This document shows positions 1 through 63,412 of a stretch of 64,000 bases of DNA, in pieces. Below the pieces are notes generated by a model. That model made no database searches. It was not told the origin of the DNA and was given only the letters and a program-made list of their open reading frames with translations. Source of the stretch: Actinomycetes bacterium (GTDB taxonomy: Bacteria > Auribacterota > JAJCYG01); NCBI GenBank assembly GCA_029263055.1, contig JAJCYG010000058.1:3587-67586 (forward strand), read 5' to 3'. The stretch's first letter is position 1; every line of letters begins with the position of its first letter. Both the position numbers and the translations under genes were made by a program.

Positions 1-3000
1 TAAAAGTAAAGGGGCTCACAACAAAACTCATAATTACATAGAGGTAGAACATTGAAGACAAAACAACTCCTCCACCCGTATTAAAGAACATCAAACTCAA
101 CACCGTTGGAACAGCCCATATCAGCACAGCTATAACTTCAAAAGGAACTTTCCTTCCGGTAACGTGCCAGAGAAATACTGACAAAAGCACAAGAGCTGGA
201 GCAATTAACAAATAAGGTGACAGTGGGGCAAGAGGAAGCAAGGCAAATAACGGCAGAGAAACAAGTAGCCCTAAACCAAAAATCCCTGTTAATGTCTCCC
301 ACGTATAAGACTCTGTTCCTTGATCTTTAGCGGCTGTAACCCAAGCACCAGCCTCTTTTAATCCTTTTCTTAATCCTTCAGATTGATTCGCAATTAGAGT
401 GGTCCAATAAAAGAAGCCCCCTTCTAAGAAAAGAAACTTTAACCATTTTAAGGTTCCATCAAAATAACCATTCCTCTCCCAAAATTGAGCCAGTGAGAAG
501 ATACCAATCGCTTGAGACATACCCCAACCCGCAATAATCATATAAGAAGGAAGCACAGTAAAAGGGTTGGCTCCAATAACCAAAGCACCAACAATAAACG
601 TTATAATGGCAGGAATACTAAAGTAATGAACAATCCCATAAAAAGCTAAGTTAAAGAGAAGGTCAAACTTATAGGCAAATGAGACATGAGGACTCGCCAT
701 TAAGAGTTCAAAAGCACGACTCGCTTGAAGTTCTCCACGAGCAGCTCCTTGTGCCCATTTTGCAGGTGGCGTTGCATACATTGAGAGTAAGGTCTCTTCC
801 CCTTCTCCAAATTGAAGGCGATCTTCATAGCCTCCATGGCCCCCATTAGCAATAATAGTGGCATAGCCTAATAAGTCTTCTGAAATATGAGAAGGTTGAA
901 TTCCATCATAATCCATCAAAAGTTTAGTGCGGAAAATTCCGTTATGCCCATAAAAACCAACCGCACCTACTTTACTTTTTAAGCGAAGCAAACCACCCCA
1001 AAAACTATTAACCGCTTCAGTCGCCACACGAGTTTGACGGTTATATGGTTCATTAAAAATATACTGACGAAATTGCAACACACCCAATTTAGGATCTTTA
1101 TTAAAACGATCTAAAACTTGAAGCAGCTTACGGCCATCTTCTAAACGAATCTCAGTATCTCCATCAAAGAACATCACCGTGTCCCCACGCACATATGGCA
1201 TGGCAACAGCTAAAGCCTTTGCTTTAACACTTCCTCCACGCTTACCAGCTCCTTCACCTAAGTCCATACTTCCATAAACCCAAGCAAAGTTAATATCATG
1301 AACCAGAACATGGCCTAATTGAGCACGAGTTATATGCTGTTCAAATCTATTTAAAGCTTCCTCATCTATTTGTTTCTCAAGTTTTTTAATAAGAGAATCC
1401 CAAACATCACGCAAACGGATTTCAATTGCTTCGGCTTGAATTTCTTTGTTAAAAGCAGAGCCAGCAAAACCATCCTCTGTAAGAATGCCATTTTCAACCC
1501 ACTGCTGCTTCACTTCATCAATCAGTTCTGACTTGCCAATCAAATTTAGCGCCTCTTGCATATTTGTCCAAAGATCTGCGGCGAAATCCCATTGCCTCCC
1601 TCCATGTGGATTTGGCAGATTCGGATCTTGATCCAAAGGTTTTTTAAAGAAGGAGTTTAAACTGGCCCCACCCACAGACCATAAGATTTGAAATTTTTCT
1701 TTAGCTTTTGCTTCGACCATCTTTTTCTGTTCTCGAGTCAACTGATCTAAAGAAGTTTCTCCCGGTAAAAAATCAAACATAGCTGCTTCCATATACGCTT
1801 GTTTCACGCGTAAGAAACCAGTATAGGTTGTCTCTAACATTTGCAAACGATCGTTAGCCCAATCTTCAATCTTTCGAGTTAGAATAAGAGCTTGCGCTTT
1901 TTCTTCTTCAGACTCTCCTTCAAACGGAGGCAAACTCACACCATAAGGTCGCTCCATATAACCGTTAAGAAGACTCATTTGAGCAGGTGTAGCCCAGCCA
2001 TTTTCTTCAGCCTGATCTAATAAGTTAGAAAACTCTCCCCGATACCCCCCTGTCACTAATTTAAAGAGGCGGCTCTCACCCGAAGAACCATCTATCATGT
2101 TTAAAGCCGTCCAACTATGGCGAAAATTATCAATACTTGGAATCAAAAGAGTTAGCGATGGAAGGTTTTCCCACTTGGGTCTATCAGGAAGTTTGTTTTT
2201 TCTTAAATGGGCATTGGCCCAGAATTTTATTCGATCACGGGCTTCTTTATTTACAATGTCAACCAAGGCTTGAGCTTTAATCGCATCATCTGAGTTCAGT
2301 AATTTATCTTTTTCCTCAGAGGTCAACTTATAAGAGGTATACATATCTTTAATTAAAGAGTTATATTCCCACTCAACACGTTTAAGCTTATCAGGGTCAT
2401 CACTAAACTCTTCTTTTAACATTGACCACATCTCGTTTAACGCACCTGCTTTGGTAAAACGATTTAGAGCAAACCCACCAAACAATATGGCTCCATAAGC
2501 ATATAACGTATATTGGCCATATTGCCAAACTAAGCCTAAAATTCCTGATGTTGTTAGACTTTGCGAAAGACCCCAAATAGTTGAAACATATGCCAATCCA
2601 ACGACAACTAAAGACAAAGCTAAAAATGTAACACCTATTTTTAAAATGGAAGGCCGCTCTGTTGTTTTTATTCGAGCTTGACGCTCTGAAAGATCCATAA
2701 TACCAAAGGCCGAAACCAAACCACCCAAAGTCCAAGTTGAAGCAAAATAACTTAAGATTAAAAAGAAATAAGCGAGTAAAGCAGAAACACCAAATAAAAT
2801 AGCACCAGAAATAACAGAAACCATACTGTCCTGATAGATTAATTCTAAATAAGGAACGACTCCAGCTAACCAAACCGGCATAGCCACTCCAAAGTTCCAA
2901 AGGACCCAAATAGCAATCGAGCTAATCCAGAAAAGAAGGCCGGCTGCAGAAGTCTCACCTTTAACTCGAGCGGAAAGAGCTAAACGAACCAGCAAATTCA

Positions 3001-6000
3001 AACCTAAACCAGCAACCATACCTAAAAGGAGGGAAGAAATAACAGGAAAAGCAAACACCCCAAGCGCAATAACGGCAGCAACACTTCCTAGAGCAACAAT
3101 GAAAAAGTTTCCTGTTTTTGAAAGAGGGAGAAGCGTTTTATTAAAATCAAGTAAAATGGTTCGAGTATAGACAATCCAATTAGCAAGAGGAACTCGTTCA
3201 CCAATAAACTTAAGCCCTTTGATCAACTGAGGGAAGCGAGCACTTGCTTTGACTGTTCTTGGTTTTAAATTAGGATTAAAGGCAACGTCTGCTTTACCTA
3301 AAGCGGCTTGAATAGAGTGAACCAGTTCATTTACTATCGCATAACGAGGAAGTTTACTTCCTTTTGCAATTGCTCCTTCAATCTCTTTTTGAATTCCTTT
3401 TACGGCATCCTCGTTCATATCAGGATTAAGACTTTTAATTTCTCCGATCATTTTTTTAATCCTTTTAGAATCAAGATTAGGACGACGGATTTCAAAGATT
3501 AATTCAACAATTCCCCTCACATCAGGATGAGCAATTTGTATCGGTTCAATAAGAACAGCTATTTCTTCAGCAAGGTTCCTATCTAATCTAAGGGAATATT
3601 GCTCAATACTGTTTGGATCAAGATTGAGGTCCTTTGGATCAATGCCAATATCTGAAACTAACTCTTTAATTTTATCTGGATCTAGTCCTTGTTCTTCTAA
3701 CTCAAGTTGTTTTTTATTTCTATCTCGAAAATACCGAAAAAGAATAGAGACATCTTCAGGCATGAACACATTTCTACGAAGCAAAGAAGCGGCTTTATCG
3801 CCTGCCATGACCTTTGGAATAATTGATTGAGTCTGCATCATCATATAAAAAACATTACGGTAAGCTAAAAGTTTTTTGGCAAAGACAGCACTCTTATCTG
3901 CAAAAGCCAGTATTTCTTCATTGGTTAAGGCAGCGCGCTCACCTAAAAGAACCCGCTTTTCTTCATCAATGGCTGCAGTAAAAAGCATAGCTTCATCAGT
4001 TAAGTATTCAGCCATTTGAGTTGATCCAAAATGGCCTAAGAAACGCATAATGGCAAAACGCACTACATAACGCTGTAAGAGAACAGGTTTTTGCCCTCCT
4101 AAGATATCAATTAAAACTTTTTTCTCTCCATTTTCTTCATATCCATTCCGATTCCAACGGACCCAGGCATCATTTTTAAAGAAGAGGGTCATACCTTCTA
4201 CTTCATTATCTCCTAAACCAATTTCGCGAACCCACCGTTCCATTTCAGGTATCAAGGTTGCTTTAGTTACATCCTCCGGACGAATTCTCTCATCAGGAAT
4301 GACACGTTGTGCTGGCTCTTCTTTTGGCTTGGATGTTTTTGCGAGCAAGCTAAATAAAGCTCCAAGCGCAGCAATCACACCCGCAATCAAATAACCGATC
4401 CAATCTAAAATAGAGGTTTCCTGTTTTGGTGAAATTGATTGGTCCCAAGGACGGTCGTATTTTTCCCAATTGTCGGCTAATTCATCGAGATCATTTTGAA
4501 CTGAAGCTTGATACTCATCCCAAGGAATAGGTAAAGGATAACTGTCTAAACTATATTCACTTGAAGTTCCATCCGCATTAAAACGAAACACTCGCTCTGT
4601 TCCATCTTCCATATCTTTTTCCCAAAGAATCAACCCCCCATCTTCTTGGCGAACCCCTTGATACAAACGGCGCACTTGACCGCCTTTATGACCCAATTCA
4701 GGATTGTCATTTTCATAAACTAAAAAGCGCGGAATATTTAATGAATTAAAATAGGTCCGTCCTTTCCAAGTTGTTTGAAATTTATCTGAAGAGACGTCGG
4801 CAAAAACATAAACACGGTAACGTTGTCCATCAGATCTAATCGCTTCATCATAGTTAATATGTTCTCCACCTTGAAAGCGCCACACTCTAAAATGCTTGGT
4901 TCCATAGGCATCTTCAAATAAAAAGTCAGTTGTTCCAACAATGGCACCACGAGAATCTTTTAAATAACTAAAACGCCCTTCACGGCCTGCTACTTCAGGC
5001 GGCAACGTCTCTTCAGTAAAAAAGTTACCCACCTCATATCCATCCGTTAAATGAGATTGAACTAATTCATAGTCACCCGCTCCACTAAACTCTCCACTAA
5101 TTGCGATCACAGGAAGGCTTGATGTCGCACCTTGCAACATCACGTTTGAAAAACGGACTTCGTCTCCTGTCGCATTCCCAACGCCATTACCATATCGAAT
5201 TCCTATTTGAATCAAATGAGAGGTATCAACATTGTGGTTGGCAGCAAGATCTGATAAGGAGACTGTTACTCGGTGCCAAGCACGTCCTTCGCTATCGCGA
5301 CCTGCTTCTGGAAGCTCTGAAATAGTATACGGATCTGTAATGTGGGTGGCTCGATTAACATGACCACTTTTATCTGTAAAGGTAATAGCAAAGCGTTCAT
5401 TTCCAGTATTGCCACGAACAAAGAAAGACAATGTTTCATAACCTGAGACATCATAGTGGGTGATATCTTGAGCTGGTTTCAAAGGACGTACATAAGAATA
5501 AGTTTGACCCAAGTTCATTCTAAACCAAGCATAGTCGTCTGAAAGCTCTAAACTTCTGACCATAGGTTGTAATAATTTAGTTGCTGGGCGCCCTCCAACA
5601 AACTGATAGACACCCTGATTCCTTAAACGAAAGACTCGGTCTCCAAGCTCATTATGGACCGTCGATCCATTTTGCATTTCTAAAACAGGTGAATCAAAAT
5701 TTTGTTGCAAATCATAAAATAAAACGCGACGCGTGTTACTCTGCGCATCAGTCACTTCTTGGCGTACTTGTGTCGTTGACTCTGTCTGACCTGCTGTTGT
5801 AACGGCCGTTGAAATAATCCCATCAGGATGAGCTTTCAAATAAGCTGGATCGTCTGTTGTTGTGACTGCATTTGTTATTTGAAAAGGGTTCTCAGTATTT
5901 CCATATTGGTTCACTGTGGTTCTAGTTTCAATTAAAGTGTATTGATTCTGTTGATTAGGCAAAGAAGAATAGGTCTTTGACTGCACTTGAATCAAACGAC

Positions 6001-18481: not shown

Positions 18482-18533
18482 CTGTACACCCTCCAAAGTC
18501 TCTCGGATTTCTCAAGTTGCACCTGCTCTGATG

Positions 18534-18562
18534 AAAAAACCGAACTGCTGTAGGCAGCTCGG
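18534..18562 (-). terminator. Intrinsic terminator (riboswitch expression platform)
   Basis: Minus strand CCGAGCUGC-CUACA-GCAGUUCGG-UUUUUU. The 5' arm is the 3' strand of the aptamer. Confidence 0.85.
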
Positions 18563-18636
18563 CTATCCTAAAAACCTTAACAAGGATCCGTTGCTTTGCG
18601 TCCCAGAGTTACCTCTGGTTTGCCACTTTCTACTTA
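18549..18636 (-). ncRNA. c-di-GMP-I (GEMM-I) riboswitch aptamer
   Basis: GUAG..GGCAAACCAGAG-GUAA-CUCUGGGACGCAAAGCAACGGAUCCU..AGGAUAGCCGAGCUGCCUAC matches the GEMM consensus (GGCAAA, GNRA loop, GGGACGCAAAGC, GCCGRGYUGCC). It lies in the 5' leader of the 18481 ORF. Confidence 0.93.
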
Positions 18637-18643
18637 CACTATT

Positions 18644-18672
18644 ATGATAACAGGAAAAGCTGGCTTTGTCAA
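18644..18672 (-). promoter_or_regulatory. sigma70-type promoter
   Basis: TTGACA-17 bp-TATCAT with TG extended -10, immediately upstream of the riboswitch. Confidence 0.75.
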
Positions 18673-18782
18673 GGTGAGCAGGGCATTTTAGTGCTTAAAA
18701 AGAGTCGGTTTGCTCTTTCTAACTCATTCAAAATGCTGAGGTTAGATGGATATACCTATATTTAGGAACGGTCTTATTCTAA

Positions 18783-21700: not shown

Positions 21701-22040
21701 TCAAATAAAAATCATCTAATTCGCCAGAAGGATCCATTCCAAGACGAATCAACTCACGCGCTTTTTCTTCTCCTGTCGTAATATCATATGCTGTTCGAAC
21801 CGATTTTCCTTTTAAGAGATCATCGTAAAAACTGTCAGGAACAGATAATTGATCGGCAAGCGAAGGAAGAAACATATCTTGTAAAGATTCTTGTTGGGCA
21901 ACAGCAGGCAAATCAGAAAAGGGCGCAAGAAAGCTGTTTTGCTTAATAGAACTTGCTGGCAAGCTCCAAGAAAGTAAAACAGCTAAACATAGGCTAAAAA
22001 GCCTATATAAAGAGATGTGTTTTGTTGAGTCCCGTTTCAT
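18783..22040 (-). CDS. Signal-peptide-bearing protein with two GGDEF-like domains (putative diguanylate cyclase-like), 1085 aa
   Basis: N-terminal hydrophobic stretch LFSLCLAVLLSWSLPA. Domain 1: FYLIFIDVNNLKLRN..MDVFL..NGGDERVVVLP. Degenerate domain 2: LVQIDIG..TKFLNEVLTHGGTDDVI..FRGPPDSIYLWMP. GAGG RBS upstream. Confidence 0.8.
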   Translation of the reverse strand: MKRDSTKHISLYRLFSLCLAVLLSWSLPASSIKQNSFLAPFSDLPAVAQQESLQDMFLPSLADQLSVPDSFYDDLLKGKSVRTAYDITTGEEKARELIRLGMDPSGELDDFYLIFIDVNNLKLRNWIYTNEIMDVFLADFDNAMQRILNNVVRQIGNKAYSGFSYVNGGDERVVVLPTSDPEVVEQVMFQIQTYLRRLIKGKYQLGVLQLDGDSRIKTMGKENPKDDEVRRLLFEGEYYEEEVQNNNPGILRLLREKGVNVVQHSEQYFLVYENEDDLDQTFFEVQQEYPEHFVDFKPHAYYAGVLDSSTLTGVASSFKETLRDMNGSVKRTAPNILEQWVLRNEIASQTLSESGKDAVALLHPDADPLNQNRHRNDEKLEVLNNEDYILAQAQTRGSSLVFGQQDGRFFRMPNKKSAIQNTITNVRTSGYLVQIDIGYISDTIKAEVLKYEEEMRGQILKDNYDLDEEDEEDATFIRQKVREEMFKKFRVISPQLMGVNTKFLNEVLTHGGTDDVISAILTYVWEQVEKLNRELAERQRGDEFFHGWNAPIFTFRGPPDSIYLWMPVETGNGLNESEEIKVLKGAVRSILANVRGKVFRSTDVREKGANEEPIRGQLDPRIKLNFLTSVLSVKDSDQRKMIPRGDERKAGKLFENMERAYRVLMESVIKQNADKLDHVWRKKGGAAKNTRPETLARIRKQLVSEFQGQLTEIDPSFSDVDFKSLGDDKFMSGGDFFLVYNGNIEAKSETIQVELAVNSELEISRRDLLEKAEKWKRELKLYKETGRLNYNELFYVLTSMLERESELERFNRVAHDLGVKKEIDDKLGFKTDSSSMKEAAKVLRALMAGKEEGSLGGVAAFLEEVSSREIFDPAKIYTKLETERLRLVEKIYNLTGIYLDRELGARIPKKGEEIVIHHAYSDFGIGKDDISYSKGASRVVEILSDEFKREELKKLRQQYRELLQFTRYQPLFERFVRGYQELLDTMPRAETLLKQLSRQDPALYHHLIHVLYRSELSDVGAGVAAIKLPDEIKPKNDFVLPMLILSSVTQGQISSMRDRFATLVEEEGFSQLTQVQSDRAFDTAI

Positions 22041-22076
22041 TAAAACCTCTAAATCCCGTCATAAAAATTAAATACA

Positions 22077-22104
22077 AATATACATGATTTTCAGGATTTG
22101 TCAA
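22077..22104 (-). promoter_or_regulatory. Possible sigma70-type promoter of the GGDEF-like gene
   Basis: CCTTGACAAA as in the other two promoters, then 16 bp and TATATT. Confidence 0.5.
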
Positions 22105-60100: not shown

Positions 60101-62941
60101 ATTCAAAGAGAGGGATTCGGTTGCTCCTGACACTGTCACAGGAAGAATCCAAGATTGTTGCTCAACAGTAAGTGAAGAGTTTTGGTCAGTAATAATTTGA
60201 ATAAAACGATCGGTTTGCAAATCTAAAAATTGATCTAGATCGCTCTTGTTTAAAAGTGCTCCAAGTAAAAAGTCAATCTGGCCAAAAAAGGTGGGAGCAT
60301 CCTCTTCACTCAACCTGTATAAATTTTTATCGACAAAATGCTTTGCTTCACTCGTAGGATAAAACCTTAATTTAAGTAACGCCAGCTTAACCGCAGATAT
60401 TTGTCCCGCATCAAAATGAGGAGTCAAACTATCAAAAAGAGGTTCAGGATCATCAGCATTCCATAAGTCGCTATTCTCATCGGACAAGACAGCAACCATC
60501 AGACGTTTGACAATATTCAAATTAGAGTAGACACCTGATCCAGAATACTTTTCATTGATAGAATTTTTTAACTCTGAATCTAAAAGAAAAGAATAAGCTA
60601 ATGCTTTCTTTAAAACAGCGCGTTCAACTCTAGATGTTGGCTCATTTTCTTCAACACCTGGATTTAAAATTTTCTCGAGATCTCGGATAACCTTACTTTC
60701 TTCTGCTGTCAACAGGATTGCAACATGCGGTGGCTCAGAAGGTTCAACCTCTACAGCTGGTTGTTTACCCCGTTGGCTGTGAAGACTACGCTCTCTAAAA
60801 AGTTCTAGCGTTGTTTGAGGAACCTCATTTAAGCTCACTCCTTGTTGAAAAACCAATGTTTTGCCTAAAGCATCAAGCTCATACCGTTCTTCTCTATCCC
60901 CTAAAAGCATTGCATGATCTTTTGCCTTTTCAGCATCCACCACAAGCACTAAAAACGGAGTTCCATTTATATCTAAAACCGCACGAAAGCTTTCAGAACC
61001 CATATCTGAAAAAGCTTGAGCTTTAACAATTCCTACAGGCCCTTTCATTTGAATTGAACCAGAATCAAGAGCTTGATTTAATTCGTTTAAGTCTGAAAGA
61101 GTCACTCCGGTTAAAGCAGCCTTAACAATCGGTCCTAAAAAAGTAAGCTGCGTTCTAACCAAAGCAGCACTTAACATTGTTTGTTGTTGCATTGGGTTTG
61201 CTGCACTGGCTAATTCAATTCCCAAACGGTTCCCAGAACGAAGCAAATCACGCTCAAATGGAGTGCGTACATTAAGCATGCGCTTTAAATAAGAAGATTC
61301 ATCATAATGAACCATACGCGGGGCCACCACAGCATACGACAAATCTTTACCCGCAAAAATTTCCTTAACCCCATCCGTGTGAAAACCACCTGCGATCATC
61401 ACCACTAAAGCAGCATTTTCTTCATCCATTTTAGCCAACAAATTTTCAGCCATGGCTTGATCACGTTTAATCGCAATCTCATAAAAAGACTCTAATAAAG
61501 GCGTCTGCTCAAAAAGCAGATCTAACTTCATTAATGCTTCTTTTAAAGCTTCTACTTCAGCGGCCACATTGGGGCGTTCCCAAATAATGAGATTCAAGCT
61601 TTGAAGCAGGCTATTTAAACTAAGTTCTTCTTTTTGCGTTGCCCAAACAGCTAAATTTTCGCGGCTCATTTCAAGTTGAACTAATTTTTCAAGCAAGCTT
61701 AATTGCGACTCCAAACGATCGAGTTCTACTTGTGCCATATCTTGCAACCAAAGCTCTTGAATGTCGCGAGTCGCTTTTTCAATCTCAACATAAAGAACCG
61801 GGCCATCCATGTTGGCATGCATTTTAATGGAATCAACATAAAGAAAAAGATTAGGATAACGCTCACGTACAGCTTCTGGCGCCATGTAATTTTCTTCAAC
61901 AAACTGTTCAAGCAGTGTGTAAAAACTTAAAGCCGACACATGGTTTAATTGAAACTTCAAACTCTCTTGAACAAAAATAGCCAACTCTTCTTGAGTTAAC
62001 TTTGCTTGAAGTTCCTTCATTAAATAACGACGTTCTTTTTCAATCCGTTTGAAATCAATCTTATCTTCAAGGTGGAGCACAGCTAAAGCAGCTTCAATCA
62101 TAGGAAAATTAGTGTTTAGAGTGGCGCTCACTCCAGAAGCAATAGCAGCTTCTTCTAATTGAAAAAGGTATTTTTTAAATGTAAGGGTTCCGTCTTCATA
62201 CTGACGGTAACTATGAGTTAGATCTAAAAGCTCTTGTGGATAGACTTTCTTTTGAATGGAATAAAGTGACTCTTTAACACTCTTTAACGTGATTAAATTT
62301 TCAGTTTTAATGAATTGAACTTTTTTGAAAATATCTAAATTTTTAAGATAAAGCTCTGGGGTTTCAATTCCGTAAATCTCAAACGGTTGTTCAGACTCTA
62401 AAGCAAAAGCTTCTGCACCAGAAAGATAAGACTTACGCATAAAAAGATCTGAAACAATTTTTTGAACTTGAGGATCAGCATAACCAAACACAGATTGTGG
62501 ATTAACCTCTCCATGAGCCGCTTCAACTGCGATCAGAACTTTTCCAGGTAAGTTCTCTTTATCAGACAAGACTTGTTCTAGAATTTTAGCAATGTGGGAT
62601 TGAGCTTCAAAATTAGCATGCGAATCTTGAATTTGAATAATGGCTGGATTGGCTACTTTCCCTTTTTTGAGGTTAGCCACCACATCAACATCTTCATTAG
62701 AAAGATAAACCTCTTTTAACGAACCAAACTGCTCTGGAATACGAAGTGATTCAAGAAACTCATTGGCACTTGAAGAAATGGTTTTGACAGATTGATTCAG
62801 AGAGATGTTAGGTGCTGTTACAGGAACAGACCCAATCCCTTGAGCGCGGCCTGTGTCATTGCAAATAAACGTGAACGCAATCACGCTAGCAATCGACCGA
62901 ACCACATTCTTATATTTTTTGTTTCGAGTTAGTTTTAACAT
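33128..62941 (-). CDS. Giant multidomain membrane protein, ~9937 aa: signal peptide, ChaN/TIKI-like module, TM blocks, split GT2-like synthase, TolC/OEP-like repeats, degenerate (alpha/alpha)6 domain
   Basis: ORF track gives 33128..62998; start moved to ATG 62941 (MLKLTRNKKYKNVVRSIASVIAFTFICNDTGRAQ) because the upstream in-frame part overlaps the riboswitch terminator. Motifs: IQDSHANFEAQ, AGGFHTDG, FTPVHNED, FPKASN, QFDDKS, AIVQS, AYGHN, IAEDA, RTWKFAKG; KYREGRASASDVALVR..AEATLRRILNI. Confidence 0.93.
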   Translation of the reverse strand: MLKLTRNKKYKNVVRSIASVIAFTFICNDTGRAQGIGSVPVTAPNISLNQSVKTISSSANEFLESLRIPEQFGSLKEVYLSNEDVDVVANLKKGKVANPAIIQIQDSHANFEAQSHIAKILEQVLSDKENLPGKVLIAVEAAHGEVNPQSVFGYADPQVQKIVSDLFMRKSYLSGAEAFALESEQPFEIYGIETPELYLKNLDIFKKVQFIKTENLITLKSVKESLYSIQKKVYPQELLDLTHSYRQYEDGTLTFKKYLFQLEEAAIASGVSATLNTNFPMIEAALAVLHLEDKIDFKRIEKERRYLMKELQAKLTQEELAIFVQESLKFQLNHVSALSFYTLLEQFVEENYMAPEAVRERYPNLFLYVDSIKMHANMDGPVLYVEIEKATRDIQELWLQDMAQVELDRLESQLSLLEKLVQLEMSRENLAVWATQKEELSLNSLLQSLNLIIWERPNVAAEVEALKEALMKLDLLFEQTPLLESFYEIAIKRDQAMAENLLAKMDEENAALVVMIAGGFHTDGVKEIFAGKDLSYAVVAPRMVHYDESSYLKRMLNVRTPFERDLLRSGNRLGIELASAANPMQQQTMLSAALVRTQLTFLGPIVKAALTGVTLSDLNELNQALDSGSIQMKGPVGIVKAQAFSDMGSESFRAVLDINGTPFLVLVVDAEKAKDHAMLLGDREERYELDALGKTLVFQQGVSLNEVPQTTLELFRERSLHSQRGKQPAVEVEPSEPPHVAILLTAEESKVIRDLEKILNPGVEENEPTSRVERAVLKKALAYSFLLDSELKNSINEKYSGSGVYSNLNIVKRLMVAVLSDENSDLWNADDPEPLFDSLTPHFDAGQISAVKLALLKLRFYPTSEAKHFVDKNLYRLSEEDAPTFFGQIDFLLGALLNKSDLDQFLDLQTDRFIQIITDQNSSLTVEQQSWILPVTVSGATESLSLNELVVADSKKVLSDDKIIKGVVIALLDAFAHRLETDFAGETDPGDGKGGPLTIAARIKDEVAADKSTEEYFGMIQRFKDKFQSQEQVGIFDLIEREDTLETFVQRANLVLGFYPLALGLTQEDEYEEDETQAAEVEKVEDAEVVGMLGGDVAPTAPSEEEVLLSELRSYFISLASAPNPILYKKDLRKALALISQAPKPVQEAALALVDSTADRVDLLIQATLQFRLQRWSEAADQVIENQLVQSSLVLARNNLEDVSGLRTKIKNLSSFLQSFNTEQTVLYFETLESKISDLETEEQAKVREGLDRVFSLVFSHYGAQYGYDVFISRQTDRLAEALSEEYNVSDWVNGQAKESIQTLPQVKPVAVEMLRPLLERMKLSLTKTQFVDRDYAARVESGDITDPSLRFNQEQLRQIQADAFVKQVDLLLAQLTGENRPSIIEIHTVLRHIKDINEQWRISNENQFSLIEENFTFSSDSFLQEFPLAESLMHYLNQINGEDSSYSQLELYEIFFANPISKTIALYPVTAFLAPYLLTKKPQVPAVQYGDLEMGIAEAPPEGSTVPSADPTDIDLDAVQGLGGAPVAARVQPVQRVRQRPEEPTVTAEAVTPATPLPAVTQPAAPVGPQTPDRQLAANQAGKDKDDEEEYSGVIPNTLRLLWRVIAGLIAIGSPLVEGFFESGAMVTASFNGVSFYLSSALFFFAAMWIVTAIVINDGRKLETERQRLKREAEGDASRFRQVVRKIIDAFSPLIGVGVSAYTINQLALMGGIAVAASPFFFPVVFFALLIFVLPLFSETRLIKNNILRSNLTSIYLTAEAFAVGVVLATVFPGSFLYMLLGLTLAVVVGGVIRVFNKMPSRNKGEFWAKLIGFSTALLLLPDLIRVVAQPLVQGGVGTAFYAHVDALASLAQALASQNFLFIIGSFIIAFPFIRAVWATRGNDEKAQRWGNAYVGGAFVVVALALFWFYPQIAQLLINGFGADSFGILSTLANGTHFISYWASFFAAEPTALTQAVVVGAFFAIAKGIHSVWTFRPRTRGTSSDRRNQKVTRVEENKVDNATVEGMTLFTPVHNEDIHIIIKGLRMHQRSAGYYKEQLATRGLDHRVNIARADDYLYLLADKVKPKAEKTGAYFNELREDVLRHNAVNPLSDPRPMEDLLDYQDVITFVIQELRYKDPKMSFQSAYEAALEMVEGLLDDLNPYRDRLRSLKEVIEVNKVFDVADAEKKWKADQSHNKAWTRHEVMDEALKRLHVVQTDRLRGTGDLTDKVLDLILVKAYRNKIESNLEPVADADAVSELSRMNLEMADSALVLNSFKWVTQFMSKDNEDNTNDNFFGEALYRLGVTEENFENLQQLYVRTAFYETQKIQYTSRPKHGEVLDKGKVYRRHGLFPKASNQSVPFQIDFALEEVVKLSKRLGDTFAPVLNRHKAWMILKTEPVWTIQTKILKKIDPKNGGLSYTDAYREVKKELLDQNQIHPIVFAWMEQKAGHRFMAEILNTSVEASQKIEEDLALQEKVVQHHHARSLTKEEKVIQTVATSLSVSYRTARLIVQSEDSSSANENKKARKKALFYLLAEINGISNDADNETLLAEIRGVPSVPFVGSLVPIDPLAPDHPVWEEQVENLSKAIKAKADDLIDLALGRSQALQKWAFMSAAEVLGLSVQMTDRVENNLKEFAEEIRDEEGRALTRSEEIMKTIASALSISYSTVEKIFEIENKLTENEKEEARKFALNLLVAESNGIDSDPSVNPDWEVEVQLLGEEELTDGIEILELVLEYKQSLNEIKMASVLRYQEDVLNKRVNEVAQADGNLSVIPLSPRHKELIRIITQHLAESDPLKAQFPSNVSVREWELYYDVWTDASFLRRAPTESEVTARFREVLYAQGIRGFLGDQVHDTMHEELGWGDLISNKVNGEPAEHYMGLNKILQFDDKSSWAATQGTWEMAKFMFENPNLAIVQSTTEANNSDENMVTRNVGPLVGIFSKEIVPTNDMTFAYGHNQLVSRVSLRASLAFDPHIRGKDYRRNVKKRIGSPGSEKIWSQGFGVRPLTNVMHSRSGRTFIAEDAQQQMMSTELINPVTGHKFDSITVTTGYEGTSEGVVPDFNVTSSVRTWKFAKGAWELLGNTVTEVFKNAPRLYSWPVFGTVAFLLMQAGIRGWTVFGLPFPFPDLSYGISTISIYFQQFGISPFGLLLFVGSLLVMNLLWQTAKQIWEKRHTGSKWKAFQMVVASVLLTGIAVGFGLLFYNLGLHQVALSLGQALFNLEFVGLVRELLGPTLYGLVKFALVVYAGLKTVRFVMLRGEVSEVLSKLPFVGEWIRYYSTREVAEGNFFASLAKAGIVSLLVAQYLGAVGPAVALGSAVPLVVIAALFNSYTLEDKIDPSKKVLKAAVGTQGTFTNLVSAGAKVVRWQVLIEALEAVRASSYQGFKTWGGRFWNGFFLTASAALILVSNNYSSLISENVISGFRSVVVDLFGPFPGMEQVLTNMGAVITNALDWLPSWEIISNPALTSVFGLEVVQLLLLALVVAVPIYIIFYVGFSQTIETLKNPSRLLGVFKVRYLLPLTAITIAATGWSPKIAGVTLFEPFWNGFLAGLGAFPVELALFFGFTFVIGGIVYFSLGGVIPQKVKNAVKTWPGIRTFHRVLVGASKARGLFTEDMLSFFKNPRVPWTAKVQFASNLFGFVILLPLMILTFANIWIWNLGISNVYTAMPLMLLPFGIIASLAPNAINLESFANEKVSRMTSFFRISPDDKRGEYAPAKFLKKYLAHKQLRYVVILGVILLAPILMPLAYLFLTWYYTAQMPSQMFGATGQMFGSVKRASHTGVKANVNVESKTFREILVSIYSKSIIYTQLMGLGLIGSIGYGVLIGTIPMNNLVLWAVLGMNLFIGLGMIVSPIIFSREIVAKTSSMVGSFKLLIYNAVKRVFLNPVVPVLLLLIGAVGPFIPQIGLPGLIALGAGAVLLGISIFFFDSSVKTPAFRTAGERFKRFEEKHIQPWLRRLVFSAFLFLSSSLFWSGLLSNQGPSWLPQRLRALVAQLNRVNPIRKSDEDADLRQLELQLANQSLNDLQQTSIRLIGLRGSTARLNQAIHEAGLMVQDRQGRTSIIEARRRTLQLSKVEALTAMQFASTRNVDVTRLINHLNQLRQKEIQAILAYEQLATNVNSSTSFNARSFQAFIQQIGQLKVDYDEVSNVIGLFETQLRNQGLSLNDPSLEAVTRLVNRLRDLAVQNRGSWVQLESYLASQGELVSQGVQDKPVIGAIQGGLQLAQIERLASDDADLFTQQVDREIARADTALRREQRLLTEAQRWLAHLTQVKDSNELQIRELAQHYNLLHIRMNAASERARQYNASELLAGLGDVSGLAYSFSYNPIWIEQIMEAEDLYTQILTQYTSVSGSQVDADANKERLLTAIQSARNNPLGRTIWTGNGTASLDNLKAVVERLEAGSSLSWAEVKRHLVQGLPFIRQLQAGTLSTDYTARYYTEMTHDLDLSYAHSLIYAPNRQAPRAQFQTNRRAEVISDLSQDRIDWSLFEQVLRREFGNHRAVEFAGIRSQVYRLFRNEIQYLNRDQATVNRVLAVLNIRGEVSNADLVSEISRRPVLSRTRALALLQQLKDTGVVNGEGQTIKLPANFLQESVLNQRMLDEVLAEGVLARQGYQALSTQIRSELPAALNERTQVQLRLSVRLGNIHGYDGVSGFARIIRQREEDDIEIRIRGIAQLIADLSSGGSEDILRIPLSELVIPAFVQGSTRLARAQNYLAYLRATLDELDELRLAEEGVARAQEKVRATQPQILARLRLSAGDKYDEEISMLQGRRLQQRQLVHRLTQRAIQADQTWFRQLSRLREYLQRLSHRHASGAPIRVVVDRLLVQLERYEQVVGEADLARERYVSELIRFTLTERRADGLSRLANLRTLHRQKETTLNTLGETIRTDLQTLAGLDQSTLAEWIRTERDTRAASFNFQDYLVNRLLRRLPVAISDILNVRAASQTSYFRDVREIGLRDRIGTIDAVLAGLDSHSTRRVVPLPGSGRTSGGVVPAVSGTSFLVTTDNLATGVMQDSRVVAAQAGLERARLQRTSRYRRFAPRVAAVLGASDFATEGTATDSSPRETDLTVGARASVSLSVQDLIEASQVNRAVQEQEHAVHQAAQQVLMERFIAASDVLFSRQKVELGRAHIEGLRLVLSETETKYREGRASASDVALVRTEISREELNLIVFRSEVFQAEATLRRILNIPSNQSLRFNDLGIEIDQIRSTVAQLQNGALTRMLEHAGISRETLTASRGQNLDLLRAQNRGEQIQAGLRSAASTSIFHTEMGEHWSALSLVPRVLVNFSYAHDFVDSTNTLTADARLIWTIFDTQTGRNIRRQVALSDLNSREQLRILHDEKLRTEQVYRAQVETQQRFATLLQHLGDAAGRMRTVDIPALRRAYQNHPTTENLRELMAALRLQANAMDSASVRQRWMRETLGAQRGQNLVPDTWNGQVQNLTDVFRDIPNRMIQNHPEILFRDSEIQLAQTMLDTTGGLWVFDRFSLQGLAGARYQNFTGNSNNVPGRFSNGQWYVGARAEVRINTLIDEQQALHTAEIREHTAQKAVAQFNLRKRGIETLIRIIVLNQALVVPTTGGTNRQFRVNQDNPTQATTELLQLLNQFQSLPGMRARIQADLLAATQNRNETLFTLERLTRQLAIELGMNPRALQLNINMTLNESNMNTLVAQFADLVRAGRSAQTELRRAQEARIAAERRLREERNSISGTFLNNGVLFAEYTYARSFNGNGDEHQLIAGIDLAALFSRDESSRRRSRDRFYSSSSRLSVTPGQDSARAIRSRTEAAAALRRATERKRTTGQELLQAEQAWTRVRGDTSVTNQRLFFDARRRYLRAVSADREALMNLGLAQITALYHEVPNVTSATHSTTPAQVRNYSSNQTYLEAAMTHSSIMQSAQSNLQQKQTALQTALDSAGILNRLIRFDGYQLEYTGRQFENRPNNGSNIVTHEGMARVLFHLNPSASVRATVLQAYLDYVRALELKARTEAQERLRIMQDLMGVAVSGDQLYVLTETLKGYHNSLTDTVVRVGSTRGIVSAWAGLAGRGNRILADDDLSILRDILEIEYDGTLELMLAARNFSRLSAGGDATNQAILDQVNQFVHGQAAPEFNRDEKRRIMDMIATAFNGPQTPAPYLTLALTKLSSLQIHRFLNTTNPAHITSMVNLGGFGEFAEPARRVAAQTLLENLNNFVQENAEVQESLNIFSIKEQQLNQLRQRNQDGLNLLKLNVGLNSQDTLTVTGIERLGLHRYNGRRVLPTEFQALLSSSNLDIEALNEAEANLLRTSDLLTTLGTHSEVMQFVLTGQDPTTDAARQEIERLNLQPWGNNTFEYIFLRNMRLGGGAGVNNFNFSNSDGNPTLQAFLEIGLDYLFISEIDDAIERTYLAQEATRIGTSMNDIRAHLQQVFRDLVRANMEFHANKNLITTNQALLNALNAEHRNGIGSLQDRQRAVQALANARRAQINAFMRFTVAAGVLENYGVNIADFLQRSSRRSAEPGSESLSERLQASPMGSSLFELGMRSGYFDISGTQTATYQIELGRREIEGYEANIASAQQLMAYFTARPSVEIRNQFNLTIRDLRRTMGHIEGEMRILMRRPIALHRQLHWNKLARRVALVATTPAVEDWHDGIMSSINTRSHNMAHELVALYDAQDTRSQEELYRLTGSRSGSFEITDTAFNNLFRHPRTGEGWSRRLRTSVQPAIDALRQRDPLQANILQELVNEKITEFETLLRARRTSFNNNRTLDREFRDYNRALRLDEARLAATEAPENESDADEELRERIQGVINTEAAALYNRFYQFIDRHSDDNPSESQRALAVAGEMRNVRSLRTLNEDSLLPGSTPEIEQADQVVQGRFRVQQWNSFRPRFTQMDLIWTDALRDRFISILSDKSLVESLLADSTYGTRGGKGNAPRTALTRLVRFIDAYHQAAAVRNQFQQAPTELTQSPIWNELINTYGFTTENARAFILRYERYAKTSPMNMNTVGGRRAFLTNLFDLSQENATRLAQQSTYTDLIRRMNEDRVVHYFRTVQRMERIQAIMHRAMGSFIHLATHDEMAAVIEANEDNPSEEGAYITRQRNEITRIQRNIARIQAQQGQSQLLRLDQPKEEATLFDLSLQRLSQSLNGLTRGFLAPLTRPRVVELSDDLAAFYQQRQTILRLKYQLAYQTQNRSSREVANTLSQSDINAQMAALQRQYAELFNRLIDNDHTWPLVQQFQQDLNQGFQDGATTYRGLTAIRGDLQRQLVDLQLERALEGDFSSVEPNSLASSVDLARREVAAASNRLNNASPDAQVTSNEMFNRSLLRLSELEQQLFRTSGVDPNQFQREAQAFFRANGVEDVSAFAATLSFPQEQIMASLNTVITTEIARLNAEQDPTSLATRSRQIELLNQARERLREYTASVATYKELLVQYYVNLQFNISRRAQSRVLSYTDAMKLHRSMAQALATSREIQSIRATLNAKGAEIISLVTHEDVKNPSSGAGIDVTEILARTHSGTQAQAEIQSIHDDYFFEQVLAPFYMNVARDRALILSQRFRTQRNAEPNRPDILVTFEFLDQQIRDLTQEKARFVNAIPMARHARIYDQALRLIFPADAAARTRLQQHPVGAQRLIGQALVFFRQDLQQIFTQNRDFIAEGDRNGGYVGDEERRNRYQLLTRLRQATIVDALGGNGFIPVQSFQAMQVLRQVYTKYLSYDTRIAAIEEQKTALVLNPSSAFRNLMPGFVQGLVPQADSQTSILWILQELLREKQNDTSLDGVARKQATEALALMQGEHGIMRVFRDWTITQVQFDEFREQLRRGELDANDPAVRRQQQQYESRAATLIGEFEARFAILAEKMRKTPFLNTLIQEMEQRVERLGVVENFAQIMQGLRDHAGLQLWGFVERAEGVRNSLIIERDMGRRYMLHLDSEGANLQARAQWQSYIDRLKITETLSYGHEEAFFFALTGSTQGGKETLPGNPAYRAIRNYRNLLGKMNQVNERLDQPNRPVVEADYDRFLNNKHVPLNYVVLNDPYIRREFNGQQIALPRSFEGDPYVYLSDVAQMIQWKVREGQFEHARSYSNFLAYRFLMDVKETGEFNLFNSVYDLQSTDAIRLNGQYVQSVKSNSELLEALVFMVSQIGDTRSLPYIYYLTHQLSQVTSGATVDAASEAARIQALRSAHQLLGQPRIQRLPMTDFMASLERLMVTEAVSTNPAVRTKLVEMMTWFRGAPGTVGAQALPASNIALVNLKNAVFENNFQIKSTASIETITHTFMLIRTLGLRQVNAAWGSSLTEADLTRMVQQARRIIETRRLVSQYDARFEGLSLEEGRLRSLGSYAGDREVVTRLLADVQGDKTAYLERLDEAGLIHWNVAGYGTRVVSTQDTLNYYFFLRAYQLLTPEKAAEAQEFLTAASRQASLGGQGIPEVLAEDPLTHRSARRLHIGSSALASLFLNGVNLATSATAPLPSVQTNRGRAEVTQVVRENVNHVFANTSFSTANTQLELKPMTANTAGEVTQVELVLNLTKAPSIDQFASSQFQENIFQYARDLRDQTGNIPNWMSLSDGLVQIQLSLRLTVDPVTHAVTGVEVNLPANIDAAIRAELEPALSSLQTRLNGVQIQGLSLARWAVLANVDSEANRMARSANVLRILRTGLMQTRFQHLRTALIANGNLAADATPVDYPLDEALIRATTAYIEAVRQNPSSQNRDVEHALNRVKVFLSAGVTTRDPLTLNLRLVRDMESYRQRRLGSLTTLRNLLQRLGFTTSNTSLAELVDAYSRYRQSNETLAPHVMQNMVEAEDALIRLQLDLTQEHLRALPLQKLWSLVPTDIQNGVNVVVVYGDKSITGTLTEGLLEQELTRSHLNDWVTVNGITLTGRSLSHSADETALMGRLGVAAQNPAGIAVSSASIENAHLIVLTDASQMAQLMRTHPTAFPKVVLLNDLIGTTQLDSARRLHGRGTTPEAAQQFATRYTEILRMGLVPQLQELKTERVDGQASPSLESMIAPLYREWSTANPAATFDQQFAEAMRLFQEASFVVGYPKLSLREFMNHTILLEVAQEISSRYPGELTGTLHLDDSELVERLIELDSLDQKREHSVLAGLIRLIEDFEARNVTGLVVPRGEEQLLPRLEQNGREILMAQVTHLAFQQSVTRFVEDAQSLVSDLMAVQLFNQIDPNFTLLVEPDVVDQYDISSDSGVVNQIEITKERLLEETREWFRLQQIDENNPIQIRIVPGNADDPVEFRVAPSGRIEMVLPVDHLMSLSRIQLGRDTIAAFNQRNRHQRDASRQVVGERGINLRVDRDVAVAHQMVGPNNFVDGLQRLVPRLRELAAQNSLHPNSVVIVRVIKGDATVTPNVRAVADIVRTYIDVTDGWVQEQVAALPAVQSVNSVEAFNERYQHQRGAGSATAPRGIELRTNVPEAELQRLQAAGLMAKIERLVPRFRALADTVNRSGRNRIVLIVSSTHSRDVVVDNLSDLRRVTIVLTPAQVEAELAALDKQADPPSGNKGAGKPAQAEKKSAADPKPGTKPTTKPVGKPKKDVPAKVDRVEPPTTKPAAKPQPNKRGQERTALKDGFSKVATDSKEAARIFQNQFGEAMNSESSEGLKTLVQENPDMRIEIFALASVKRVRQLQAMDKTTGEAQVNAARAVVSTIKFLLNTFSKELHQKKNDELQKQLKRAQAIIKKSETEKAEKSGQRSMKSGLGLDLKAMLAYESGDPKAALKKMLQGVLVGSQKEGKNPRLVQQLTPAYERMPAEAEVKNFIWKLSHLNKLMGGEYTELTLTTLSQSELERFYEMYQTYSKTLSAELSLDEREHALVRSFLEEKAKTEQRLDRELELVKETMKNSKALLVLNLEGLESSQIEQIQNQLADVPNLLVAIIVGSENDADRLSAQLEDTENIYAGTTRTLTALRESAWMVFEVTQYSNSDFGDQLMNQMVIEEVLRHLVPEQAPSELEEMLEGAQQEQQSEQNFGVAA

Positions 62942-62977: not shown

Positions 62978-63022
62978 AAAAAAATAGCCAAGTTGCATGC
63001 TTGATTAAAACTGCAACTCGGC
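62978..63022 (-). terminator. Intrinsic terminator (riboswitch expression platform)
   Basis: Minus strand GCCGAGUUGCA-loop-UGCAACUUGGC-UAUUUUUUU, overlapping the aptamer 3' strand. Confidence 0.8.
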
Positions 63023-63180
63023 CAACTCTCACAAAAACAATTTCAGTCATACTCACATCACAACTAGTGGGAGTTCTCCCACTACAACAATATAAGTACA
63101 ACTGGTGACACCGAAGTGTCGATTTTAAGAGTCCCGTAGCTTTGCGCCCCACAATTGCTTGAGGTTTGCCCTGTCTTAAA
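63005..63180 (-). ncRNA. c-di-GMP-I (GEMM-I) riboswitch with ~95-nt insertion in the second stem
   Basis: P1 UUAAGAC/GUUUUAA; AGGGCAAACCUCAA-GCAA-UUGUGGGGCGCAAAGCUACGGGACUCU..[insert]..AGAGUUGGCCGAGUUGC. It lies in the 5' leader of the 9.9-kaa ORF. Confidence 0.85.
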
Positions 63181-63239: not shown

Positions 63240-63268
63240 AGAGTAGCAGTTTTCAATGGTTTTGTCAA
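63240..63268 (-). promoter_or_regulatory. sigma70-type promoter
   Basis: TTGACA-17 bp-TACTCT with TG extended -10, about 60 nt upstream of the riboswitch. Confidence 0.7.
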
Positions 63269-63412
63269 GGCCCAAGCCAATTAAATAAACTTAAATACGT
63301 AAGCCATTCAAAATAAAAGCTTTAAGAATGAAGAAAGTTCAACTTCTCCTCTCCTCAACCCTTCTCCCAAAACCCAAATCGTGCCAATTCTTATGAAATA
63401 ACCCACCCAAAC

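Follow-up and report, generated by a model that had tools for sequence, protein, structure and literature searches.

Giant proteins with a shared TIKI-like N-terminal head behind predicted c-di-GMP-responsive leaders in an Auribacterota genome

The giant locus and its shared head

The window analysed here is a stretch of 64,000 nucleotides from a member of the Auribacterota, taken from one contig (G000:C58:3587-67586) of a 2.95 Mb metagenome-assembled genome (MAG) that comprises 124 contigs and is 96.8% complete. Its minus strand carries four long open reading frames (ORFs) that fill positions 2-62998, following the treT 3' end in the order giant A, giant B, gene G and giant C, so that three giants and one further gene occupy about 62 kb, as an earlier reading of the letters made without database searches (the sequence-only reading) had noted. 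The GC content is ~40% along the whole window and the composition shows no break; the features are collected in Table 1. Giant A most likely starts at ATG 62941 and not at ATG 62998, where its ORF begins; the latter codon lies inside the terminator hairpin of the leader. Giant C runs 3.6 kb past the window to the end of the contig. It is collinear with a database homologue of 7,809 residues (31-52% identity, in six blocks), and because that homologue ends 22 residues past the end of C, giant C is nearly complete, with ~22 residues apparently missing. Across the genome, 32 stop-to-stop frames reach at least 1,500 residues and make up 11.9% of the bases, the longest being of 19,512 residues.

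BLASTP comparison of the four proteins shows a single shared region, the first 560-620 residues of A, B and C, with identities of 25.6% over 617 residues for A and C, 24.8% over 580 for A and B, and 28.7% over 565 for B and C. No other high-scoring segment pair was found among the four proteins at E ≤ 1e-5, and no internal repeats. The genome as a whole holds nine copies of this head, together with a minimal version of 266 residues (contig C83) that lacks the central insert. Six of the nine sit on proteins of 3,171-9,937 residues and one on a protein of 1,238 residues; of the remaining two, one belongs to a gene split between two contig ends and the other stands alone at 570 residues (contig C42). 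An alignment of the ten paralogues, which are 22-27% identical to the reference, contains 21 invariant positions, including D95-x-H97, E130, R445-D446 and G470-G-F-H473. Beyond residue 640, only two short matches connect the head-bearing giants found in the genome (221 residues at 39% identity and 186 residues at 30%), and the paralogue on contig C50 has no Pfam match. The cargos thus share almost nothing, which supports the proposal of one common N-terminal module with exchangeable cargo.

Several further observations concern the carriers. The 19,512-residue ORF (G000:C42:18538-77073, plus strand) has no head, and the stand-alone head gene of 570 residues (L008, C42:78295-80007) lies directly downstream of it. 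A paralogue of 3,610 residues on contig C32 (L005), nearest to A (head 41% identical) and itself behind a predicted riboswitch, carries RamC_N (67 bits, residues ~1324-1481) and FHA (31.7 bits, residues ~2134-2189) domains, which are usually cytoplasmic signalling parts. Two further giants of the genome are split by contig breaks: the ends of G000:C45 (3-386) and G000:C82 (17687 to the end) carry the same head sequence, and the giants at the end of G000:C2 and at C115:27355 to the end share an identical overlap of 46 residues, which implies one protein of at least 7,000 residues.

The head is N-terminal in every case inspected, in all nine cases of the host genome, in four of four loci from other genomes and in three of three head-bearing giants from databases. 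All complete heads are preceded by a basic and then hydrophobic stretch ending in A-x-A-like residues, which we read as a signal peptide. Cysteine is almost absent from the giants: throughout the genome, all 16 stop-to-stop frames of at least 2,500 residues contain 0.01-0.13% Cys, against 0.93% in frames of 200-1,500 residues. Giant A has a single Cys in 9,937 residues, inside the signal peptide, and giant C a single Cys in 7,355. Given the signal-peptide-like N-termini and the near-absence of Cys, we infer that the giants are exported via the Sec pathway.

Comparisons with known families and structures place the head in the TIKI superfamily. The Pfam family PF04187 (ChaN, Tiki superfamily) is matched by five of the ten heads, with a best E value of 4e-5. 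An AlphaFold2 model of the head of C, made from an input of only ten sequences (mean predicted local distance difference test score, pLDDT, 73.6; predicted TM score, pTM, 0.57), has a beta-alpha core that is split by an all-helical insertion of ~250 residues. Superposition of this model on 48,161 chains with VIA-align puts ChaN at rank 1 (Z 9.4, 188 residues aligned, rmsd 5.8), HopBA1 at rank 2 (Z 8.1), EreC at rank 3 (Z 7.4), BcR136 at rank 6 (Z 7.2) and BcR135 at rank 9 (Z 6.9), and on this comparison the modelled head has the alpha/beta fold with a parallel beta-sheet core that is typical of the superfamily. In the available part of a structural paper on RRSP (PMC6254334), the members of the TIKI superfamily include the proteins matched here, and the active enzymes are defined by an E-x-H, E and H set with a nearby Arg. 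The residues D95-x-H97, E130, R445 and H473 are found in ten of ten paralogues and match this set and its spacing, with Asp replacing the first Glu; the separations of 33 and 28 residues resemble those of E3900-x-H3902/E3930 and R4001/H4030 in the same partial text. The head thus looks like a new, divergent family of the TIKI/ChaN/erythromycin-esterase superfamily, apparently catalytically competent.

Identification of the head as ChaN itself was considered and rejected, the match to that Pfam family staying below its cut-off; since no Pfam model of the clan passes its cut-off, the head is filed as a new family. Another sequence feature lies at the C-terminal end of the module. A G-N-R-[LI] stretch (alignment A1, columns ~631-636; residues ~520-525 of C) is kept in five of the ten paralogues, 30-40 residues past the last strand of the head and near the end of the stand-alone 570-residue version, and is a possible linker or cleavage motif.

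A pattern scan over one genome per species gave at least 594 candidate stretches, and at least 566 loci were confirmed by tblastn, mostly in Omnitrophota, Elusimicrobiota and Auribacterota. The best 80 of these, named from their record titles, include 35 from Omnitrophota/Omnitrophica, 15 from third-party 'Planctomycetia/Planctomycetales' MAGs, 10 from Elusimicrobia/ota and 7 from Auribacterota (3 of them Theseobacter exili), with 1 each from Ratteibacteria, Actinomycetota and Clostridia. Within the phylum of the host, heads occur in 20 of 79 genomes, a single genome having as many as 48 first-look candidates; among the 150 matches listed, 31 lie in open frames of at least 5,000 residues, the longest of 24,620 residues.

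Leaders of giants A and C

Two regulatory leaders precede the giants, one with a canonical c-di-GMP-I (cyclic diguanylate) aptamer before C and the other with a variant before A. The genome contains four matches to this aptamer, three of which precede head genes. The core GGCAAACC...GGGxCGCAAAGC is invariant in all four copies, which have the two hairpins P1a and P1b together with P1, and compensatory changes are seen at 7 of 24 aptamer pairs when three copies are compared. The leader of A has an intact first hairpin and CGCAAAGC core, and the 3' half of the second hairpin is displaced by ~90 nt, a gap that Infernal spans. The minimum free energy fold keeps the split P1b stem around two hairpins of the ~90-nt insert (z -3.6), one of which has a UUCG loop, and the A aptamer scores 32.7 bits on our own covariance model, R1. 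Matches to c-di-GMP-I aptamers elsewhere in the phylum are often 126-184 nt long, against ~85 nt (for example G002:C1:44507-44652 and G037:C178:2472-2655), so structured inserts like that of A seem to be common there.

In this aptamer family, specificity for c-di-GMP goes with a G at position 20 and specificity for cGAMP with an A. Both leaders have G as the last nucleotide of the junction in front of P1a. Rare relatives of the c-di-GMP-I riboswitch that sense c-AMP-GMP are described in the part of a paper available to us (PMC7266159). Both leaders are predicted to bind c-di-GMP, and the genome has six canonical GGDEF genes, scoring 146-170 bits, from which it follows that the cell can make this ligand.

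Each aptamer overlaps a transcription terminator. Before A, before C and before the C32 paralogue, the aptamer-closing strand GCCGAG(C/U)UGC doubles as the 5' arm of a hairpin that has a tail of 5-7 U residues, and the overlap is 16-17 nt. The terminator of the C32 paralogue has a folding energy (dG) of -19.8 kcal/mol (z -3.9), and for each of the three leaders 0 of 200 shuffled sequences were as stable as the hairpin. As aptamer and terminator are mutually exclusive, a bound ligand should permit read-through, and the A and C leaders are accordingly predicted to be ON switches. On this evidence the proposed control of A and C by c-di-GMP gains support from aptamers joined to ON-type terminator platforms. 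The fourth aptamer of the genome (G000:C45) stands apart from these: it precedes a protein of 1,850 residues (L012:797-6346, minus strand) whose start resembles a signal peptide and which has neither a head nor a Pfam match. No terminator is evident after it, and its control may therefore be translational.

The promoter-like site of the C leader has 11 of 12 matches (Table 1). A scan of the region before the A aptamer gave no minus-strand site; a TTGACA-N17-TACTCT sequence is visible there by eye and fails the rule of the scan. The gap of ~120 nt between A and B lacks a promoter-like site, its one hairpin is weak, and B is therefore probably co-transcribed with A. Before G there is no terminator, and between G and the C leader none but that of the riboswitch.

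Recurrence of the pairing between head and riboswitch was examined in other genomes. Of the 80 head loci from other genomes, four have an aptamer on the same strand immediately before the head, namely L021 (66.6 bits), L030 (50.8), L072 (41.3) and L039 (43.8, below the cut-off); two of these heads stand alone at ~570 residues, and the remaining two belong to ORFs of 1,949 and 3,242 residues. L030 has two aptamers in tandem (1577-1706 and 2563-2652) upstream of its head-bearing ORF of 3,242 residues, one of them weaker and 1 kb upstream of the other. At L039 the riboswitch-plus-head gene is preceded, at a distance of 2 kb, by a partial tmRNA match (530-605) that scores 42.2 bits, below the gathering score of 47. 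In the phylum, RF01051 is matched in 41 of 79 genomes, with 109 matches, 105 of them outside the host genome. Seventy-two of these aptamer loci were examined, the 29 best and 43 in head-containing genomes, 6 of the 43 being under 800 nt and not judgeable. The 29 best gave no head in a search that included positive controls, and the 43 gave three, all in a single genome (G012). The pairing is thus real but confined to few lineages: it recurs, with 3 of 4 aptamers in the host genome, 4 of 80 foreign head loci and 3 of 72 aptamer loci of the phylum, and it is the exception among head genes. At loci L132-L174, which come from head-bearing genomes of the phylum, most of the longest ORFs beside aptamers start in a signal-peptide-like manner, as judged by eye, with their strand relative to the aptamer left out of account.

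Cargo of the giants, gene G and the flanking genes

The cargo of giant C includes a synthase-like module. On Pfam it stays below the cut-offs (Glycos_transf_2, 21.5 bits against 23.3; Glucan_synthase, 20.8 against 37.2), and a phmmer search of the Protein Data Bank (PDB) finds BcsA at E 0.007. Residues 5200-6380, compared by phmmer with 1.84 billion representatives, have 117 matching proteins at E ≤ 1e-3, and the core common to these corresponds to residues ~5750-6110 of C; 26 of the 117 are of at least 2,000 residues, and three of these 26 carry the head. Each of the ten short homologues sampled has a match at E < 1e-3 to Glucan_synthase or to a GT2 family, above the cut-off in seven cases, and the best Glucan_synthase score reaches 108 bits. 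An AlphaFold2 model based on 75 sequences has a pLDDT of 73.4, rising above 85 over the glycosyltransferase (GT) core. Foldseek gives 57 matches to this model at E ≤ 1e-3, the top one being BcsA (4p00_A, E 8.4e-9; the title of entry 4p00 names c-di-GMP), and the best 50 of the 57 are all membrane-integrated processive synthases, namely BcsA, CesA and hyaluronan, chitin and Fks enzymes. In the model the GT-A domain is joined to a transmembrane (TM) channel bundle, with hydrophobic helices flanking the GT domain. The sequence has DGD and SED motifs, of which the D and the ED are nearly invariant in the 75 sequences. On the basis of fold and transitive homology the module is filed as a divergent synthase, a predicted BcsA/Fks-like membrane-embedded processive glycosyltransferase, and giant C most likely makes and extrudes polysaccharide.

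Giant A has 20 strongly hydrophobic segments, with clusters at residues 1634-1910 (~7) and 3127-3960 (~13). The call of an outer-membrane channel made by the sequence-only reading is upheld by one OEP repeat (PF02321) above the cut-off; another Pfam scan of A counted two OEP stretches, one of which is among the matches listed. Neither Pfam, NCBIfam and PDB phmmer searches nor a GT profile built from the homologues of C found a glycan synthase in A. NCBIfam gave no families for A at all, phmmer of both halves of A against the PDB gave no matches at E ≤ 0.1, the ESM Atlas gave no usable match for residues 3050-4050, and for the cargo between residues 620 and 5600 a search of proteins 5,465-17,390 residues long gave no homologue. 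Apart from the head and the OEP repeat, no known family was recognised in A. Glycan-synthase-like domains had been assigned to two giants; the assignment stands for C and fell away for A. The cargo of giant B has no family match and no hydrophobic segment after the signal peptide, finds only itself among proteins of 1,994-6,346 residues, and contains no GT according to the same profile; B and G together match no Pfam family at E ≤ 0.01. We take B to be a soluble exported protein.

The sequence-only reading had also placed a glycoside hydrolase in the giants and had inferred a single-chain exopolysaccharide machine in which synthase, hydrolase and channel are fused. Pfam gave no glycoside hydrolase for any of the four proteins at E ≤ 0.01, nor for selected parts at E ≤ 1, and NCBIfam gave none for A, large parts of these proteins having been covered by sequence profiles alone; the hydrolase call is thus not confirmed. 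As the synthase is in C and the OEP repeat in A, and no hydrolase was found, no single chain was seen to combine all three functions and the fused machine found no support.

Gene G encodes a protein of which only a small part can be assigned. Its own Pfam match is not significant (GGDEF_2, 12 bits, E 0.24), and a genome scan with PF00990 at E ≤ 1e-3 did not pick it up. A homologue that is 51% identical (P0002) matches Pfam GGDEF with 27.8 bits against a cut-off of 23.8, and hhalign of the four-member G family against the six GGDEF domains of the genome gives a probability of 84% (E 7.6e-6, 78 columns). The GGDE motif is invariant in the family and is followed by R, K or N. Residues D117, K122, N125 and D134 of G align with conserved GGDEF positions, which may include the metal- and guanine-contacting residues. 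Homologues of G are rare, three being found among 5.8 billion clusters and none at E ≤ 1e-5 in the 78 other genomes of the phylum. In all four family members a positively charged N-terminus leads into a hydrophobic segment, which suggests that G is exported. The label 'GGDEF-like' thus survives in a remote sense, through P0002 and the profile alignment, for what appears to be a GGDEF-like protein. G was also considered as a normal cytoplasmic diguanylate cyclase; the signal-peptide-like N-terminus speaks against this, and since a cyclase outside the cytoplasm would lack GTP, G is not assumed to be a maker of c-di-GMP.

Upstream of the giants lies the 3' end of treT, a housekeeping gene outside the giant system, which in full length (L123) matches TreT_GT1 at 185 bits. 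The strong intrinsic terminator that follows it is predicted to close the treT unit and to insulate the giant locus.

Table 1. Coordinates of the features in the window, in the order of the minus strand
Feature	Position	Strand	Basis and remarks
treT 3' end, TreT-type GT4 trehalose synthase	63545..64000	-	Pfam Glycos_transf_1, 67 bits
Intrinsic terminator, strong	63470..63509	-	17-pair stem, then T-run
c-di-GMP-I-type aptamer before A, variant	63008..63179	-	RF03167, 39 bits, E 1.6e-7 (from an 801-nt search); RF01051, 34.6 bits, E 5.5e-5
Predicted terminator hairpin + U7 before A	62979..63030	-	dG -24.6 kcal/mol, z -5.6; aptamer overlap ~63008-63024
Giant A, 9,937 aa	33128..62941	-	ORF; start ATG 62941 with Shine-Dalgarno-like AAGGGG/TAAGG before it
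Head module of A, residues ~1-600	61142..62941	-	Alignment A1; Pfam Cofac_haem_bdg, 20.7 bits, E 4.7e-4
OEP repeat of A, TolC-type, residues ~4998-5174	47420..47950	-	PF02321, 37.7 and 41.7 bits (cut-off 22)
Giant B, ~3,625 aa	22127..33004	-	Probable start ATG 33004; signal peptide, head, ~3,000-aa cargo
Sigma-70-like promoter before G	22077..22104	-	TTGACA-16-TATATT, 11/12 matches, consensus match only
Gene G, 1,085 aa	18783..22040	-	Signal-peptide-like N-terminus, GGDEF-like palm, ~850-aa C-terminal part without assignment
GGDEF-like palm of G, residues ~106-193	21462-21725	-	Remote similarity
Sigma-70-like promoter of the C leader	18644..18672	-	TTGACA-17-TATCAT with TG extension, 11/12 matches; upstream of aptamer
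c-di-GMP-I aptamer before C, canonical	18549..18633	-	RF03167, 65.5 bits (gathering score 59); RF01051, 64.8 bits (35)
Predicted terminator hairpin + U6 before C	18538..18564	-	11-pair stem; dG -18.5 kcal/mol, z -5.2; aptamer overlap 16 nt
Giant C, 6,160 aa in the window, 7,355 aa to the contig end	2..18481	-	Start ATG 18481
Head module of C, residues 1-600	16682..18481	-	Alignment; sequence modelled with AlphaFold2
CBM30-like stretch of C, residues ~4337-4427	5201..5473	-	PF21582, 25.2 bits (cut-off 27); lead only
Predicted processive polysaccharide-synthase module of C, residues ~5640-6380 (5640-6160 in the window)	2..1564	-	Pfam, phmmer, AlphaFold2/Foldseek

Interpretation and comparison with known systems

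We propose that the locus is a c-di-GMP-ON regulon of Sec-exported, almost Cys-free, TIKI-headed giant envelope proteins, one of them a polysaccharide synthase, in a biofilm-dwelling bacterium, and give this reading a probability of roughly 0.6. At high c-di-GMP the ligand would bind the aptamers in the A and C leaders and so keep the 3' strand of each from serving as the 5' arm of the terminator; transcription would then continue into the 30-kb gene A, in all likelihood together with B and perhaps with G, and likewise into the 22-kb gene C. Each giant would consist of a signal peptide, a TIKI-type head of ~560 residues and a lineage-specific cargo. The synthase in the cargo of C would make and extrude polysaccharide, the cargo of A would contribute ~20 membrane helices and one TolC-like repeat, and B would be a soluble, exported protein. 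The head itself would act in the periplasm as a hydrolase, maturing or cleaving the giant chains. The habitat is indicated by one hint only, the label of biofilm metagenome on both sequencing runs that contain this DNA.

Several results weigh against this reading. The A aptamer stays below both gathering scores, with 39 bits against 59 for RF03167 and 34.6 against 35 for RF01051, and its outer stem P1 pairs poorly, with non-standard pairs; the claim that A and C each have their own c-di-GMP-I riboswitch thus holds for C, at 65.5 bits against 59, and is weakened for A. The majority of head genes lack a riboswitch, and the aptamers of the phylum mostly precede other exported proteins. Gene G has its own promoter-like site, so that its dependence on c-di-GMP is not given, and no RNA run is among the sequencing runs listed as containing the stretch. 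Of the heads, none passes a Pfam cut-off (that of A reaches 20.7 bits against 27.7), the head profile has no matches to PDB sequences at E ≤ 1, and Foldseek with the head model gives a best E value of at least 0.04 and none at or below 1e-3, with erythromycin-esterase-type entries at 0.2-0.5. No result points to any substrate cut by the head. In the synthase, the QxxRW site reads PAKWAQG, with K for R and no Q, and a crude hydrophobicity count places the GT domain in the periplasm, the wrong side for an enzyme that depends on sugar nucleotides. Pfam finds no PilZ domain after the synthase, and c-di-GMP would therefore act on the mRNA and not on the enzyme. The genome scan finds one OEP repeat in A, against two in the ordinary OEP genes of the same genome.

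The head could also be a non-catalytic module for export, anchoring or ligand binding, either with ChaN-like binding or as a retention plug, with the giants as passive matrix or adhesin scaffolds and the C synthase as the sole enzyme. The top structural match of the head, ChaN, is a haem-binding lipoprotein and not an enzyme, the head always directly follows the signal peptide, and some proteins of the TIKI fold, such as PMT, are inactive according to the available part of PMC6254334. The same text has inactive relatives such as PMT without the catalytic motif, however, whereas catalytic-type residues are invariant in the ten head paralogues here, only 22-27% identical to the reference, and we consider a non-catalytic head doubtful. 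A bolder idea is that TIKI-headed giants are self-processing 'operons in one polypeptide': once a c-di-GMP riboswitch has let the 20-30-kb message pass, the exported head would cut the chain that carries it, or the chains of paralogues, into the parts of an envelope machine. If true, the pieces would be the inner-membrane, periplasmic and outer-membrane parts of a polysaccharide-secreting machine, and the head a portable maturation module for hundreds of unrelated cargos in Omnitrophota, Auribacterota and Elusimicrobiota; we hold this to be unlikely. A cell that depends on hosts or prey might instead use the giants for attack or attachment, with c-di-GMP switching them on at contact and the synthase and channel parts serving cell-cell attachment or feeding instead of a biofilm matrix. 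The head family is commonest in Omnitrophota (35 of the best 80 foreign loci); in the available part of West-Roberts et al., the giants of that phylum are tied to the binding of prey cell walls, with PilZ genes downstream and GGDEF domains inside, and Seymour et al. are cited there for one giant protein that rises 3-fold on prey attachment. Yet A, B and C have no dockerin, lytic, peptidoglycan-hydrolase or adhesin-repeat match in Pfam, the genome is of 2.95 Mb at 96.8% completeness, and Auribacterota MAGs are described as inferred free fermenters in the accessible text of PMC9324843. The type II/IV secretion cluster described upstream of the Omnitrophota giants is also not seen here upstream, where treT, a peroxiredoxin gene and similar genes are found instead, and a predatory or host-bound role seems to us improbable.

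Alternatively, the frames could be misassembled, pseudogenes or non-coding, and the riboswitches could belong elsewhere. The genome is a short-read MAG in 124 contigs, the depth of the two runs is low (6-8x and 2-4x), C is cut by a contig end and two other giants are split, and no homologues of the A or B cargo turned up in the length ranges searched. Against this, open frames of 30, 22 and 11 kb at 40% GC are beyond chance, C is collinear with its homologue of 7,809 residues at 31-52% identity along its length, the heads, the synthase and the OEP repeat have recognisable folds, and the Cys avoidance is frame-specific. Logan contigs from two runs of one study tile window positions 14001-34000 with 0 differences, 0 indels and 0 joints, so that over these positions the misassembly feared by the sequence-only reading is not seen in the contigs of the second sample. 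Run X1 may be the source sample; run X2 contains 0.73 of the sampled words, with 1 of 30 bins uncovered, and a third run, X3, contains next to none of them. An artefact is therefore, in our judgement, very improbable indeed.

The regulation, export and processing of giant genes in Omnitrophota and their neighbours are a recognised puzzle, and the locus offers three handles on it: a predicted small-molecule switch directly on two giant messages, a conserved, enzyme-like head, and one cargo whose synthase activity can be predicted. The head, with at least 566 loci, could be a long-sought processing or maturation element. The leaders would also extend c-di-GMP riboswitch biology to a candidate phylum in which aptamer-linked genes mostly start like exported proteins.

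The closest known counterparts are the giants of Omnitrophota. The available part of West-Roberts et al. 2023 (bioRxiv 10.1101/2023.11.21.568195) describes proteins with an N-terminal C39 or S8 peptidase near the signal peptide, for which autoproteolysis was proposed, with PilZ genes downstream and GGDEF domains inside the giants. Nielsen and Lui 2026 (bioRxiv 10.64898/2026.06.07.730766), in the part available, report 916 long proteins, 94% of them with TM helices or a signal peptide and most unique in sequence. As far as these partial texts go, the giants described here resemble them as ORFs of several thousand residues with a signal peptide and TM helices, mostly 'dark' and with unique cargos, in having an N-terminal domain to be compared with the protease-like one there, which was proposed to cut the chain, and in a link to c-di-GMP, made there by PilZ and GGDEF. 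They differ in that the head is of TIKI/ChaN type, the link to c-di-GMP is a riboswitch and the phylum is another one. Dockerin, TSP3 and discoidin repeats, as in the 'Archaeovorin' giants, have no Pfam match in A, B and C, which also have no internal repeats; the dockerin or tandem-repeat architecture is thus a further difference. The available texts of the two papers contain no mention of TraB, Tiki or ChaN, although supplements and the catalogue of 916 proteins might list such heads; nor do they mention a riboswitch, or c-di-GMP outside the passage on PilZ. The word cysteine does not occur in the text of West-Roberts et al. that was available.

Comparison with c-di-GMP-I (GEMM-I) regulons shows the same aptamer family, a terminator platform and targets in the envelope or biofilm; control of envelope and biofilm genes by c-di-GMP riboswitches is described in the accessible part of PMC7266159. 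The targets here are by contrast giants of 22-30 kb, and one aptamer has a branched insertion of ~90 nt. A literature search gave no relevant paper that joins 'c-di-GMP', 'riboswitch' and 'giant protein'. In Clostridioides difficile, c-di-GMP riboswitches control adhesins as well as the corresponding protease; in Vibrio cholerae their target is a chitin-binding protein. The head agrees with the TIKI superfamily (Tiki, TraB/PrgY/GumN, ChaN, the erythromycin esterases, RRSP of MARTX and HopBA1) in its modelled alpha/beta fold and its acid-x-His/Glu/Arg/His set, and departs from it in the helical insertion of ~250 residues, in Asp as the first acid and in its fusion to cargos of up to 24,620 residues. 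Giant C shares with BcsA and fungal Fks1 a predicted GT-A domain that leads into a TM bundle, as well as the DxD and (S/T)ED motifs; unlike theirs, its module is embedded in a chain of at least 7,355 residues and has AKW in place of QxxRW, and PilZ was not found. In BcsA the enzyme itself is acted on by c-di-GMP through PilZ. The LapA/LapG/LapD system of Pseudomonas fluorescens offers an analogy only. There, c-di-GMP and a periplasmic protease acting at the N-terminal module set the fate of a giant surface protein, by way of a protein receptor and a separate cysteine protease, whereas the locus described here would use a riboswitch and a built-in TIKI-type head. Relative to the known giants, the locus would thus add a third N-terminal hydrolase-type head, a predicted c-di-GMP switch at the RNA level, and another phylum.

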